Source: Candidatus Borrarchaeum weybense (GTDB lineage Archaea > Asgardarchaeota > Sifarchaeia > Borrarchaeales > Borrarchaeaceae). From it: a stretch of 12,861 nt of DNA. Shown here piece by piece: positions 805 through 10,583 of the stretch (position 1 is its first letter; each line of letters starts with the position of its first letter). A model generated the notes under the pieces. The model did no database searches. It was not told the DNA's origin and worked only from the letters and a program-made list of their open reading frames with translations. Where the stretch lies: positions 649,547 through 662,407 of the forward strand of contig JAHQJS010000004.1 in NCBI GenBank assembly GCA_019057385.1. Direction: 5' to 3'. The translations under genes were made by a program, and so were the position numbers.

Positions 805-1317
805 ATGGGTGTTAAGGGTTGGCTAGGCCATAAATTAAAGACAAAGAAAACAAGTCTTGAATTATATCAAGCGACAATTGCTGGTATTGTGGATACCTTC
901 TTAGCAAAAAATGAGGGTGACATTGAGAAAACAAATGCAGATATCAAAGATCTTGGAGAAAGGATGACAGCAACACTTCTCATGGGTTACGCAGAAAAAA
1001 TGAAAGAACATGCCCCTTCCTTTGAAAAATTTAAAGATACGTTGTCTTTAGCTTACAAATTCTACTCAGGAAATAGTTTTACAGATGCAGTATATGATCC
1101 ACAACGCAAAGTAATCCGCTTTGAGGACGACAATTGCTTTATATGCCGTGGTATTACATTATCTGATGACTTGAAAGATTTAAAATACTGTAGTGTAGTC
1201 CCAGGTATTTTTACTGGTGTAATGAAGCTTAGAGGTTTTCCTGCCGATTGTAACCAAATCGAATGCAAAGCTGCTGGTGGGCAGACGTGTGCTTATGAAT
1301 TAGTGTCCTTTGAATGA
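805..1317 (+). CDS. V4R (4-vinyl reductase / Bet3-like) domain protein
   Basis: 170-aa ORF. GAGGT (793-797) lies 7 nt upstream of ATG 805. The C-terminal half carries the V4R cysteine pattern: CFICRG ... YCSVVPGIFTGV ... ECKAAGGQTCAYEL. Confidence 0.8.
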   Translation: MGVKGWLGHKLKTKKTSLELYQATIAGIVDTFLAKNEGDIEKTNADIKDLGERMTATLLMGYAEKMKEHAPSFEKFKDTLSLAYKFYSGNSFTDAVYDPQRKVIRFEDDNCFICRGITLSDDLKDLKYCSVVPGIFTGVMKLRGFPADCNQIECKAAGGQTCAYELVSFE

Positions 1318-5664: not shown

Positions 5665-5690
5665 TCAGCATTTTAAGTAGATTGGGAAAC

Positions 5691-6863
5691 ATGACTAAAC
5701 TCAACTTAGAACTAGTCAATCATTTTGTTTTGAATAAACAACATTTAACAGATCGTTCAAAAATTGATGATATTACACAAATTGCCAAAGACCTTGTAGG
5801 TCTACATGCCACCTTGCCAACAACACCCTATTTGTCTCTTTTTGCTAGAACTCGAAAATTTACAAAAGAGCAGTTCGATAAAGAGTCCTATATTGAAAAA
5901 AATCTCGGTAAGATTCGATTTGTCCGAAAAACGATACATATTCTCCCACGAGATATGATTTCATATGCGTTTTCAGCAACAAGAAAGATGGCGGAAGTGG
6001 TTTCTGAACGATACAGTAAATATCTTGGTGCCGATCAAGATACGTATGAAAGGATCTCTCTACTGATCTTAGAAATACTTAAAGAAAAAGGCATGACAAC
6101 CACAGAACTCAAGAAAGCGTTAGACACTAAGTTAAAACTCTCTTCAATTCTTAATTTAATGTGTGATCAAGGTCTATTGATTCGTGGGCCTCCAAAAAAA
6201 GGATGGAATAGTAATATTCACATATATTATCTTTTTCAAGAGTATTTTCCAGAAGTAACTTTGAATGAGTTTGATGAAGAAAACGCAAAAAAATTCGTGG
6301 TGAAACAATACATTGGCTCGTTTGGCCCTGTAACAGTAAACGATGTTTCATGGTGGACAGGATTTCGTAAGACAGAAACTAAGCAGATATTAGAAAGTTT
6401 CCAAAACGATTTAACTCATGTTGAAATTTCGCACTTAAAAGGAAATCATATCATCCTTCTTTCGGATCAAAAAAACCTAAATTCTCTAACTGCGCCACAA
6501 AAACACGTTGTTAATTTTTTACCACCACTTGATCCGTACACGATGGGGTATAAAGATCGTGAGAGATATTTATCTAATGAATACTATTATCATGTCTTTG
6601 ATCGTTCTGGTAACGCTACATCATCAGTACTTCTTGATGGAAAAGTAATAGGGGTCTGGGATTTCAAAGAAGACAAAACCGCTCAAGTTAAGTTGTTTCT
6701 TTTTGAAGAAGTTGAAAAAAACGTCTTAAAAGACATTCATACAAGCGCCCAAAAAGTTGGAAAATTCATATCTGAGAAGGAAGTTGAAATAAAAGAAGTT
6801 GACTCTATGATCCCCTTGACAAAGCGAACCGCTGGAGGATTTATGTCACCGCTTAAAGACTAA
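5691..6863 (+). CDS. AlkZ/YcaQ-like winged-helix protein (HTH_42 / DUF1006-type, DNA glycosylase family)
   Basis: ~390 aa, the typical length for this family. The N-terminus has the family pattern: VLNKQHL..(~15)..AKDLVGLHATLPTTPYLSLFARTRKFTKEQF, compared with the canonical ...RQ.L....GLQAQ....P.L.L.AR. A conserved-looking C-terminal region follows: FLPPLDPYTMGYKDRERYL...FDRSGNATSSVLLDGKVIGVWD. The start is probably ATG 5691; the track uses TTG 5682. Confidence 0.7.
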   Translation: MTKLNLELVNHFVLNKQHLTDRSKIDDITQIAKDLVGLHATLPTTPYLSLFARTRKFTKEQFDKESYIEKNLGKIRFVRKTIHILPRDMISYAFSATRKMAEVVSERYSKYLGADQDTYERISLLILEILKEKGMTTTELKKALDTKLKLSSILNLMCDQGLLIRGPPKKGWNSNIHIYYLFQEYFPEVTLNEFDEENAKKFVVKQYIGSFGPVTVNDVSWWTGFRKTETKQILESFQNDLTHVEISHLKGNHIILLSDQKNLNSLTAPQKHVVNFLPPLDPYTMGYKDRERYLSNEYYYHVFDRSGNATSSVLLDGKVIGVWDFKEDKTAQVKLFLFEEVEKNVLKDIHTSAQKVGKFISEKEVEIKEVDSMIPLTKRTAGGFMSPLKD

Positions 6864-7597: not shown

Positions 7598-8347
7598 TTA
7601 ACGTTTAGTTATTAAAATTTTCCCTTCTGTGAATTCATACCAGAATTCATCACGAGAGTACTCACCTTCTGGCATTTTTTGGATCCTCAATGTGGTACGG
7701 AATGTATGCCATTCTTCTAACTCAGTCTTTGTAAGACTTATCACACCGTCAACCATATGCTCAAACGCTCTAAGGTAATGTTTCTGATGTGCATCGGCAT
7801 GCACTATCATAACCAATACTCTGTCAGTTTTCTTCTGAGCTGCTATTTGGTGTTGTAAATATGCCAATGGTGCTTTTTCGATATCAGAAGTTACAACCAT
7901 TGTTGAAAAACTATCAACGACGCCTCGAATTTGAATCTGCGGGTTTACATGGAGTAGAGCTGACCTCACGACTTGGTTCACTTCACGAGTATCTGAGATG
8001 TTGCGGACGAAATATTTTGTCTCAGGTCTGAACTCTCCCCAAGAAAAGGGGTCTGTGAATGCATCAATATATATGAGTCGCCTAGTCTCTGTAACGATTT
8101 CGGGGTTTACTCCTAACGCCTTTAATAAACCTGAGTAAAATACAAATGGATGTTCTGTGCTTAAGATATATCCATATTCACCCTTCCGTAAAGCTTCCGT
8201 AAGAAATTTCATAACCAGTGGAGCTGGCTCTACACCAACTTTATCTTCTATTAATATAACTGATCCTCTAGGGATTCCTCCTCCTAATGCTAAATCTAAT
8301 GTTGGAATACCAAATTTGGCTTTTGTAAGTTTTTTTTCTTCTTCCAA
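7598..8347 (-). CDS. Single-domain KaiC/RecA-superfamily protein with degenerate Walker A (probable pseudo-ATPase)
   Basis: 249 aa. The N-terminus is typical of archaeal KaiC-like proteins: FGIPTLDLALGGGIPRGSVILI. Where G-x-P-G-T-G-K-[ST] is expected, the sequence reads E-D-K-V-G-V-E-P-A-P. A Walker-B-like strand (RRLIYIDAF) and LSTEH are retained. The start is TTG 8347, with GGAAGGGA (8353-8360, minus strand) 5 nt upstream. Confidence 0.8.
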   Translation of the reverse strand: MEEEKKLTKAKFGIPTLDLALGGGIPRGSVILIEDKVGVEPAPLVMKFLTEALRKGEYGYILSTEHPFVFYSGLLKALGVNPEIVTETRRLIYIDAFTDPFSWGEFRPETKYFVRNISDTREVNQVVRSALLHVNPQIQIRGVVDSFSTMVVTSDIEKAPLAYLQHQIAAQKKTDRVLVMIVHADAHQKHYLRAFEHMVDGVISLTKTELEEWHTFRTTLRIQKMPEGEYSRDEFWYEFTEGKILITKR

Positions 8348-8352
8348 AATTG

Positions 8353-8360
8353 TCCCTTCC
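8353..8360 (-). promoter_or_regulatory. SD-like GGAAGGGA in the 15-nt gap between the coiled-coil and KaiC-like genes
   Basis: The minus strand reads TAA-TAGGAAGGGACAATT-TTG. This implies translational coupling of the two genes. Confidence 0.5.
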
Positions 8361-8362
8361 TA

Positions 8363-10051
8363 TTATAATTGATTATTGTGTCCCTTTGGTATAATTTCGT
8401 CGAATTGTTTCTTATAATACTCCCCTGTTTCCTCTGATATAAAGTTTTTTTCTTTCAGTTCAGATAAGCCTTTGAACAAAACTTCCTTCTTTGCCTTATC
8501 TGTTGTAAAATTTAACTGCAACAAAGCCTCATCAAAGATTTTCTGTAGTTTTTGATCTCCTTTTAACTTATCATTAATCATTTTATTTAATGCACTGATC
8601 CTTTCTTGAATCGGATGTGTTGTTGATTTCATTTGTTCATTAAGAGCTTTTGAAGACTCTAAGTCGATAATGACAGGAAGTCTTATGTTTAACCTAATAC
8701 GGTTTCTATCATCTTTCTTCGCATATTTGTTAAGAATAAGCGGAATATACACCAATTTATGTTCATTAACCTTTTCAATCCATTTCGGTTGAAATAAAAC
8801 TGATGATGTCCATTGAGTGCTTTGAATGGTTGACTCCGTATTATTTAGTGCTTCTTTAAGATTTTTTATTTCTTTTAGTAGTTGTTGCTTTAGAAGTTCT
8901 AATGCTTCCAGTTTTTTTTGCTTATCATTTTTCAGGTTCACGATTTTTTGCTGTTCATTTTCTATTCTTTCAGAATTGTCCTTCTCAAGCTGCTCTTTTT
9001 TAGCTTCAGATTCCTCATAAATATGCTTAATCTTGTTATTGCATTTCTCATAGGAATAAGCAATTCTTCGAACGATATCTTCTATCTTTTTTGCGTCTTT
9101 CTTTGCAAATTTTACCATTGTGCCAGCTTTGTTCAATATATTTTCCGCAAACTGCTCTCCTTGAGCTTTTTGAACGTCATTGATTTCTTTATATGTATCG
9201 CGTACTTCTACATACAGCAAGCGAAGAACGTTTATATGTGGCTCTAATTCTTCTCGAAGCGTATGTATTTCACTATTTGTTTTGTTTTGTTTATCTTCAT
9301 TTAACTGATGGATTTCACTTTCTAGCATTGCAATATATTCACTAATATTTTCATTCACTTTTGTAGTCATTTGATTGATTTGTGAATCATAATTTTCTTC
9401 TTGTATTATGCTCGTTTTAGCAATATCTTGAACCCAATTAGAGCTATTAGTTAAAACGGCTTGTTTAAATCCCTTGAACTCAACAAGGTTTTTGTCTATT
9501 GAAGACAGGAGATTATTGAATTCTTTGGTATATTCTTTTGCAGTGGTTTGTGATATTAAAGGCATAATGGGAATAATCTCTTCTTTATCAGTTTTTTTTG
9601 CGAGTTCAAGTAGAGAGGAAATCATTTCCATTAAATCTGGTTTAAAAAATCCAGAAATCTTTAGTTTATCTTTCTTTGGTCTTCTTTTCGATATTTCTGT
9701 CTTAATACTCTTTAGAATGTTCAAATAGTCATCTATCTCGACATTTAGTTTCTTTAAGTCGTTATAACGAGGAGGGGTTGTTATCTGGATATCTGCGCTT
9801 GAGATCTGTAGCCCATCAATAAAATACCCATAGTTTGTGTCAATAAGAAACGTCCAAAAAGGCCAACCTATTTTCGAAAATCCAATTATATCTTCATCGT
9901 CCTCTTTGTTCATATCCGTAGTCATAAATTGAATTGCAAATTCTATCGCCTGTGAAATCAGCGATTCTGCGTCTTTAATAGTTGCTTCTTTTTCAGCTTC
10001 TACTGTCCCTAGCACAAAAGGAACGAAAAGATGCGTATCTATTGATTCCAT
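8363..10051 (-). CDS. Large coiled-coil protein of unknown function (globular N- and C-terminal domains flanking a long K/E/N/Q-rich helical region)
   Basis: 562-aa ORF with ATG at 10051 and GAAGG ~8 nt upstream.
- The N-terminal ~130 aa are aromatic-rich: IIGFSKIGWPFWTFLIDTNYGYFIDGLQISSADIQITTPP.
- Residues ~215-410 (~8820-9410) are heptad-like and charged: EAKKEQLEKDNSERIENEQQKIVNLKNDKQKKLEALELLKQQLLKEIKNLKEAL.
- The C-terminal ~150 aa are mixed: LVYIPLILNKYAKKDDRNRIRLNIRLPVIID.
- I see no TM segment, no NTP-binding motif and no family I recognise. Confidence 0.8.
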   Translation of the reverse strand: MESIDTHLFVPFVLGTVEAEKEATIKDAESLISQAIEFAIQFMTTDMNKEDDEDIIGFSKIGWPFWTFLIDTNYGYFIDGLQISSADIQITTPPRYNDLKKLNVEIDDYLNILKSIKTEISKRRPKKDKLKISGFFKPDLMEMISSLLELAKKTDKEEIIPIMPLISQTTAKEYTKEFNNLLSSIDKNLVEFKGFKQAVLTNSSNWVQDIAKTSIIQEENYDSQINQMTTKVNENISEYIAMLESEIHQLNEDKQNKTNSEIHTLREELEPHINVLRLLYVEVRDTYKEINDVQKAQGEQFAENILNKAGTMVKFAKKDAKKIEDIVRRIAYSYEKCNNKIKHIYEESEAKKEQLEKDNSERIENEQQKIVNLKNDKQKKLEALELLKQQLLKEIKNLKEALNNTESTIQSTQWTSSVLFQPKWIEKVNEHKLVYIPLILNKYAKKDDRNRIRLNIRLPVIIDLESSKALNEQMKSTTHPIQERISALNKMINDKLKGDQKLQKIFDEALLQLNFTTDKAKKEVLFKGLSELKEKNFISEETGEYYKKQFDEIIPKGHNNQL

Positions 10052-10067
10052 TTTTGAGCCTTCTTAC

Positions 10068-10082
10068 ATTATCATTGATAAT
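10068..10082. promoter_or_regulatory. Perfect 15-bp palindrome ATTATCATTGATAAT in the divergent promoter region (candidate operator)
   Basis: The palindrome is read directly from the sequence. It sits 17-31 nt upstream of the coiled-coil gene ATG (10051, minus strand) and ~70 nt upstream of the nikR start (10152). Confidence 0.4.
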
Positions 10083-10151
10083 TAACTATTTAACGACTTA
10101 ATGGTTTTTATGAAAAATAAGCATTAGCAATAACTAGTAGGAGATAAACCT

Positions 10152-10583
10152 TTGACTGAAGAAAAATTTATTCGATTCTCAGTAAGTCTGTCAGAGGATT
10201 TACTAAACGAATTCGATAAAATTAGGCAATTAAGTGGTTTTGAAACCCGAAGCGATGGAATACGATCTGCAATGCGAGACTTCATTGTCAATTACAAGCA
10301 GTTAGAACAATTAGAGGGTGATCGTGCGGGAACTATCACTATTATACTCGATCATCATGGAGAAGCGGGGGTTATGGACCAATTAACTGATTTGGAACAT
10401 CATAATAGATCCATTATTACGGCGAATCTCCACATTCATCTAGATGAAGAAAATTGTATGAATATTCTAGCCGTCCGTGGGGATGTAGAACAAATAAAGA
10501 ATTTGGTTAGTAAACTCAATGCATTGCCACTTAAATACATCCGTCCAACATTGACAGTCCCTGGAGAAGAAATCCCAACGTAA
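10152..10583 (+). CDS. nikR: Nickel-responsive transcriptional regulator NikR (RHH + ACT-like metal-binding domain)
   Basis: 143 aa. The N-terminal ribbon-helix-helix is FIRFSVSLSEDLLNEFDKI...RSDGIRSAMRDFI. The C-terminal domain has the NikR Ni-site spacing H-x-H-x5-C (LHIHLDEENC) plus an upstream LEHH. The start is TTG 10152, with AGGAGA (10139-10144) 7 nt upstream. Confidence 0.9.
   Translation: MTEEKFIRFSVSLSEDLLNEFDKIRQLSGFETRSDGIRSAMRDFIVNYKQLEQLEGDRAGTITIILDHHGEAGVMDQLTDLEHHNRSIITANLHIHLDEENCMNILAVRGDVEQIKNLVSKLNALPLKYIRPTLTVPGEEIPT

Follow-up and report, generated by a model that had tools for sequence, protein, structure and literature searches.

The window analyzed here, a stretch of 12,861 nucleotides (nt) of an Asgard archaeal genome (G000:C4:649547-662407; all positions are window positions), contains two adjacent minus-strand genes, considered below as a candidate operon, that encode a long coiled-coil protein, denoted P0001, and a KaiC-fold protein without a P-loop, denoted P0002. 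The P0001 gene (8363..10051, minus strand) is an open reading frame (ORF) with an ATG start and a translation of 562 amino acids (aa); the P0002 gene (7598..8347, minus strand) has a TTG start and encodes 249 aa. The spacer between them (8348..8362, minus strand) is 15 nt long and carries a Shine-Dalgarno (SD)-like motif, GGAAGGGA, at 8353-8360, before the start codon of P0002. This arrangement, including the motif in the gap, is as described in the original prediction. Both are real genes because the ratio of nonsynonymous to synonymous substitution rates (dN/dS) is low in both, 0.23-0.28 for P0001 and 0.07-0.14 for P0002, which indicates purifying selection. P0001 is predicted to come from an undescribed archaeal family of head-and-stalk coiled-coil proteins and lacks the longin domain of its longer paralogs, and P0002 is a single-domain KaiC/PH0284-like pseudo-ATPase, an ortholog of a single-copy family that spans the Asgard archaea. 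The database names of the homologs include Candidatus Borrarchaeum, Sifarchaeia and Promethearchaeota. Throughout, G000 denotes the window genome, G002-G004 the other genomes of the genus, L numbers loci and f numbers GTDB families.

P0002 matches the Pfam KaiC model (PF06745) over residues 11-248 with 67.2 bits (cut-off 26.6). In a search against the PDB, a profile of 18 P0002 orthologs retrieves KaiC (8zn5, E 1.7e-30), PH0284 (2dr3, 1.7e-26) and SSO2452 (2w0m, 2.3e-17), with RadA reaching only E 5e-4. PH0284 and SSO2452 are stand-alone, single-domain archaeal KaiC-like proteins of the same length and domain content as P0002 and are its best full-length relatives of solved structure. Whereas PH0284 has an intact P-loop, GGPGTGKT, the P0002 family lacks it: the profile alignment places Edevgves opposite this motif, and P0002 itself has a degenerate Walker A, D-K-V-G-V-E-P-A (residues 35-42; 8222..8245, minus strand), where G-x-x-G-x-G-K-[ST] is expected. 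The loop G-x4-G-K-[ST] is gone in all 18 aligned orthologs, which come from sources labelled Heimdall-, Hod-, Thor- and Promethearchaeota; because every one of them shares the loss, this is an old, maintained pseudo-ATPase family rather than a case of recent decay. With the P-loop missing, canonical ATP binding by P0002 is unlikely. A Walker-B-like strand, R-G-V-V-D-S (residues 141-146; 7910..7927, minus strand), aligns with the vvDS of PH0284; among the 18 orthologs, R141 never varies and D145 and S146 almost never do, and D145 closes a hydrophobic strand, as a Walker B aspartate does. Opposite the catalytic glutamate pair of PH0284 (L-E-E-H), P0002 has S-T-E-H, so that one glutamate is kept. 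The family-wide loss of the P-loop combined with the invariance of R141 and near-invariance of D145 and S146 is characteristic of a pseudo-enzyme that has been maintained. The earlier description of this protein as single-domain and KaiC-like, without a functional Walker A, holds for the window protein and, as to the lost motif, for the entire ortholog set.

Inactivated KaiC (iKaiC) domains are a recognized class of archaeal signaling modules, according to PMC5847659, which cites Makarova et al. 2017. P0002 has the defining features of this class, namely a KaiC fold, disrupted catalytic motifs and retention by selection. As in the described iKaiC domains, disruption of the nucleotide-binding motifs of a KaiC/RecA fold goes together with maintenance by selection, variable partners and the presence of intact paralogs in the genome. 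The original prediction had called for a search for such paralogs, and the window genome encodes nine KaiC domains with an intact G-x4-G-K-[ST], along with three further degenerate ones. The iKaiC forms described there are mostly fused to REC, HalOD1, MEDS or DUF835 domains and belong to Euryarchaeota and Thaumarchaeota, whereas the P0002 family is stand-alone, Asgard-wide and single-copy (35 of the 121 sampled Asgard genomes, with one match each) and is partnered by an 8-cysteine mini-protein, coiled-coil proteins or small GTPases. Orthologs in family f12 (L053:5605-6729, L051:5968-7170 and L054:5362-6723) carry a C-terminal tail of 120-200 aa, which in the single ortholog aligned is a low-complexity sequence, acidic and rich in proline.

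Several more specific identities of P0002 were considered and rejected. The scores are far under the cut-offs of all specific NCBIfam models, including those for ArlH, RadA, RecA and circadian KaiC. For ArlH/FlaH, the model NF052589 yields 38.4 bits (cut-off 215), and there are no arl genes within the window. An assignment to RadA, RadB or Rad55 is contradicted by the large gap between the KaiC and RadA matches in the profile search and by TIGR00416, which gives 19.6 bits (cut-off 403). The match to the Elp4 model (PAXNEB, PF05625) has 24.1 bits against 28 and covers residues 13-47 only, and the one to Elp6 (PF09807) has 15 bits against 31.6.

For P0001, an AlphaFold2 model based on a 101-sequence alignment (mean predicted local distance difference test score, pLDDT, 88.7; predicted template modeling score, pTM, 0.71) shows a head-and-stalk protein. 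The predicted N-terminal alpha/beta head domain (residues 1-155; 9587..10051, minus strand) carries the residues most strongly conserved in the family, P11, E37, the motif W63-P64-F-W66, and D79. It is followed by an antiparallel helical hairpin (8819..9550, minus strand) of about 17-19 nm, in which a turn at 297-301 connects helix 168-296 to helix 302-411, with pLDDT 94-98 over most of the length of both helices. The predicted C-terminal head domain (residues 420-560; 8372..8794, minus strand) comprises a small beta-sheet and four helices, with P437, P459, G528 and L532 conserved. Because the hairpin brings the chain back to its start, the N- and C-terminal domains come together at the base of the stalk, and the residues that are nearly invariant in the family (E37, P64, D79, P437, P459, G528 and L532) are all located in the head. 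When the N-terminal domain is folded alone, pLDDT is 82.3 and several strands of the full model dissolve, which fits an intertwined head. The original prediction of a charged core of about 200 residues between two globular domains stands with respect to the core but not its length, which is about 245 residues (168-411), and the rod with separate globular ends that it implied is at odds with the model, where a single antiparallel hairpin projects from a head containing both end domains.

The N-terminal head domain has no recognizable fold match. The isolated N-terminal domain yields no structural neighbor and no longin or roadblock match; the possibility that this domain is itself longin-like was considered and is unsupported. 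A profile of the C-terminal domain, for which a winged helix-turn-helix was considered, finds nothing below E 0.98 in the PDB, and both head domains retrieve only unnamed clusters with scores below 0.9 from the ESM Atlas. The best Foldseek matches of P0001 are the arms of Lamassu LmuB, Smc and Rad50, but these cover only the coiled coil (residues ~180-415) and have scores typical of any long helices. P0001, as modeled, shares with SMC and Rad50 a long antiparallel intramolecular coiled coil; unlike them, it lacks an ABC-ATPase head, a hinge domain and the Walker and signature motifs, its N-terminal head domain is without a detectable relative, and its stalk has about 120 residues per strand, compared with at least 300 in SMC/Rad50. 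No Pfam or NCBIfam family matches P0001. Hence the outcome foreseen as fatal to the adaptor idea, that the coiled-coil protein would prove to be SMC-like or a member of another characterized family, has not materialized.

The family to which P0001 belongs is large, is not covered by any Pfam or NCBIfam model and is not described in the literature searched. A profile search against 1.84 billion representative proteins yields 730 clusters at E <=0.001, mostly of 530-560 aa, with named members from Hel-, Frey- and Bathyarchaeia; close orthologs of P0001 (64-96% identity) are present in sediment metagenomes. Among the 122 Asgard genomes searched, 82 encode the family, with 1-7 matches per genome, and in the window genome it is matched at five separate places. 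The near-universal archaeal coiled-coil protein of arCOG01159 was considered as the identity of P0001 but is disfavored because the family was not found in the remaining 40 genomes. In the family tree, P0001, a longin-less paralog, and its clade sit on a long branch of their own; the backbone of this tree is unresolved, and row L014, a neighboring threonyl-tRNA synthetase (ThrRS) ORF, is to be disregarded. Conserved neighbors elsewhere in the family have housekeeping roles (GNAT, radical SAM, MoCF and metallo-beta-lactamase fold proteins) and give no functional hint. In family f10, a 543-aa family member is part of a conserved co-directional cluster, with an unannotated protein of ~290 aa upstream and one or two GNAT acetyltransferases downstream (L012 and 14 other loci: L070, L073-L078, L080-L084, L086 and L089).

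Long paralogs of P0001, of ~680-720 aa, contain an additional N-terminal module of ~130 aa. In five of the six members (L013:6591-6995, a paralog in G000:C4, and those in L006, L007, L008, L010 and L011 make up the six), this module matches the first longin domain of the FUZ/MON1/HPS1 proteins (PF19036, best E 8.8e-8), with weaker matches to sigma-adaptin and SNARE-type longin models. The longin domain is absent from P0001 itself. The eukaryotic tri-longin proteins MON1, FUZ and HPS1 contain three longin domains, whereas the long paralogs have one, with the novel head and hairpin after it. The literature searched contains no account of such a longin-head-hairpin architecture.

The P0002 gene directly follows the P0001 gene in four genomes of the genus (the window genome, G002, G003 and G004) and in all five metagenome loci recovered, where P0001 identity is 70-92%, so that the pairing is kept in 9 of the 9 orthologous loci of the clade. 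In the single sister-family genome, the gene order is a 601-aa member of the P0001 family (~20% identity to P0001), a 137-aa ORF with eight cysteines, and the pseudo-KaiC. The 15-nt spacer is identical only in the close relatives G002, G004, L097 and L098. Because the spacer varies and a gene intervenes in the sister family, it is adjacency that is conserved, and not tight coupling. The tight junction with its SD-like motif, on which the translational coupling proposed earlier was based, is thus kept only in near relatives, and the conservation of the pair across archaeal metagenome-assembled genomes, which had been proposed as a check, extends to the clade and, more loosely, the sister family, but not to other loci of the coiled-coil family.

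Elsewhere in the Asgard archaea, the pseudo-KaiC is associated with other genes. Homologous 8-cysteine mini-proteins of 100-137 aa are encoded directly upstream of it in three GTDB families, f2, f4 and f5 (L060:5599-6012, L045:5390-5761, L047:3491-3820, L048:5598-5900, L049:5576-5899 and L063:6834-7160), and this mini-protein looks like the ancestral partner of the pseudo-KaiC; it was not detected in the window genome by tblastn. In three of the four f5 loci, a Ras/Rab-family GTPase is encoded next to the pseudo-KaiC or one gene away (L047:4752-5378, L049:6765-7370 and L063:4752-5309). In the f9 locus (L056), the pseudo-KaiC gene is preceded by one for a 319-aa protein and followed by one for a coiled-coil protein of 882 aa, which shows a weak TrmB/MarR winged-helix match; next comes the gene for an Arf-like GTPase (L056:9436-10560), two genes downstream of the pseudo-KaiC, with an N-terminal extension of ~120 aa. 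The f15 locus (L061) similarly encodes a 319-aa protein, the pseudo-KaiC and a 437-aa coiled-coil protein, followed by a second KaiC-family protein (127 bits). What these loci have in common is an inactivated KaiC whose partners, small proteins or coiled-coil proteins, change; two lineages add a small GTPase. A 4Fe-4S protein of the Fer4_5 family (288-314 aa) is encoded downstream of the pseudo-KaiC in f2 and f4 (L060:7106-7972 and L045:7416-8360), where it represents a second neighbor that is conserved.

The interpretation that we favor, tentatively and at slightly less than even confidence, is that the two genes constitute a lineage-specific operon of the Sifarchaeia type of Asgard archaea that encodes a non-catalytic adaptor complex. 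Under this interpretation, P0002, with its RecA/KaiC fold, Walker-B-like aspartate and single retained catalytic glutamate, would most likely serve as a protein-binding or oligomerizing platform, and P0001 would be its dedicated upstream partner in this lineage, at the place that the 8-cysteine mini-protein takes in other families. The two proteins would bind each other, and the complex might feed into a regulatory network, possibly with small GTPases or KaiC-type ATPases. The conserved adjacency, the 15-nt spacer with its SD-like motif, the purifying selection on both genes and the family-wide loss of the P-loop are in favor of this interpretation, as are the recurrent location of P0002 orthologs beside charged or coiled-coil and signaling proteins in other lineages, the longin domain that the long P0001 paralogs carry, and the existence of iKaiC domains as a recognized signaling class in archaea. 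The original interpretation is partly supported; the cytoskeletal or membrane-remodeling role that it also suggested finds no specific support.

Several observations weigh against a dedicated complex and lend themselves to another explanation, that the genes are merely co-transcribed neighbors, the pseudo-KaiC working with other partners and the coiled-coil gene having come to lie directly upstream of it in this lineage, from which the intervening 8-cysteine gene is absent; this explanation appears less probable than the adaptor complex but is a serious contender. The nine orthologous loci are not independent because all belong to one clade. The tight spacing is lost in G003, where the spacer is ~65-70 nt, so that the range is from 15 to ~70 nt. 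Only 3 of the 41 loci with a member of the P0001 family, in f1 and f2, have a KaiC-type neighbor and the other 38 have none; neither do the two paralogs of P0001 examined in the window genome. Conversely, no clear neighbor of the P0001 family is seen in the other 19 loci that hold a complete pseudo-KaiC ortholog, the only match being a weak one in L061 (E 0.002). The phyletic patterns of the two families are largely independent, with the coiled-coil family present without a P0002 ortholog in f7, f10 and f18, and a P0002 ortholog present without the coiled-coil family in f4, f9, f13, f15 and f21. The more widely conserved neighbor of the pseudo-KaiC is the 8-cysteine mini-protein and not the coiled-coil protein, and the orthology of the sister-family protein to P0001 is not settled by the family tree. 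What makes chance neighborhood harder to accept is that the two genes are still adjacent where P0001 identity has dropped to 65-70% (within the clade) or, in the sister family, to ~20%. Gene order around P0002 orthologs is otherwise poorly conserved in Asgard archaea. The long branch of the P0001 clade, moreover, fits specialization to a new partner.

A different function, which we regard as rather unlikely, would be that of a regulatory or tethering system for small GTPases, in which the head-and-stalk proteins would be longin-linked platforms or tethers, and the pseudo-KaiC would adapt them to a Rab- or Arf-like GTPase whose gene lies elsewhere. Two circumstantial and mutually independent lines point in this direction, namely the longin domain of the long paralogs and the GTPase genes near P0002 orthologs, of the Ras/Rab family in three f5 loci and Arf-like in f9; domains of the longin and roadblock types are known to act as platforms for GTPases (PMC10933270). 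P0001 itself, however, has no longin domain, the fold of its N-terminal domain matches neither longin nor roadblock, no GTPase gene is present in the window, and the genes next to other family members encode housekeeping functions, among them GNAT acetyltransferases, MoCF-type proteins and a radical-SAM enzyme. Furthermore, Asgard genomes carry dozens of small GTPases and, therefore, some adjacency is expected by chance. An extension of this idea, of similarly low probability, is that the head-and-stalk proteins, whether or not they carry the MON1/FUZ-type longin domain, might be archaeal tethers or GTPase platforms, one Sifarchaeia paralog of which became wired to the Asgard-wide inactivated KaiC that has Rab- and Arf-like GTPases as neighbors in other lineages, and that such an assembly could represent a prokaryotic forerunner of the eukaryotic longin-based guanine nucleotide exchange factor (GEF) and tethering assemblies, built on a pseudo-ATPase scaffold.

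Finally, a DNA-repair or chromosome-organization pair, composed of an SMC/Rad50-like coiled-coil protein and a Rad55/RadB-like recombination mediator, is brought to mind by the name 'RAD55 family ATPase' given to P0002 homologs in databases, by the LmuB, Smc and Rad50 arms among the Foldseek matches of P0001 and by a nearby gene for an AlkZ-like glycosylase (5682-6863), but is very improbable given that P0001 lacks both an ABC-ATPase head and Walker A or B motifs and yields no SMC_N or AAA_23 match, with fold similarity confined to the coiled coil, that KaiC and PH0284 match P0002 far better than RadA does, and that the AlkZ-like gene is on the opposite strand.

With the adaptor complex as the preferred reading, the locus is of interest on several counts. 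It defines a large protein family with a confidently predicted architecture, an N-terminal head part without a recognizable fold and, in some members, a longin domain of the eukaryotic type. It also exemplifies a single P-loop-less KaiC family that is kept across many Asgard lineages while its partners are switched between them, and offers a compact two-gene pair that is suited to testing an inactivated KaiC as an adaptor. The wider question is how the many longin, roadblock and small-GTPase genes of Asgard archaea are wired together; should the link to small GTPases be true, two kinds of unexplained Asgard proteins would gain a concrete, testable partner through this pair.

Upstream of P0001, on the opposite strand, the window encodes a divergent NikR protein (10152..10583, plus strand, 143 aa), identified by matches to NF002169 (141.5 bits, cut-off 111), NikR_C (74.3 bits, cut-off 22, E 9.2e-21) and RHH_1 (21.4 bits, cut-off 20.5). 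The divergent nikR is kept in every orthologous locus that covers the upstream region (L002, L004, L097, L098 and L099). The region between the two genes (10052..10151) includes a conserved TATA-like element, TTAAATAGTTAAT, at 10081-10093, and a conserved AGAAGG at 10059-10064, before the ATG of P0001; such sequence conservation supports the presence of a conserved promoter. A 15-bp palindrome at 10068-10082 is perfect only in the window and L098, although the TATCAA half-site inside it is conserved. Of the two features from which regulation of the operon was proposed, the divergent nikR is conserved in position, but the palindrome is not conserved as such and is weak evidence; nickel-responsive control by NikR is possible but unproven. 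Elsewhere in the window, a 170-aa ORF (805-1317, plus strand) shows weak similarity to V4R (E 2e-4) and TRAPP/Bet3 (E 8e-4), both below the cut-offs, and may encode a TRAPPC3/V4R-like protein.

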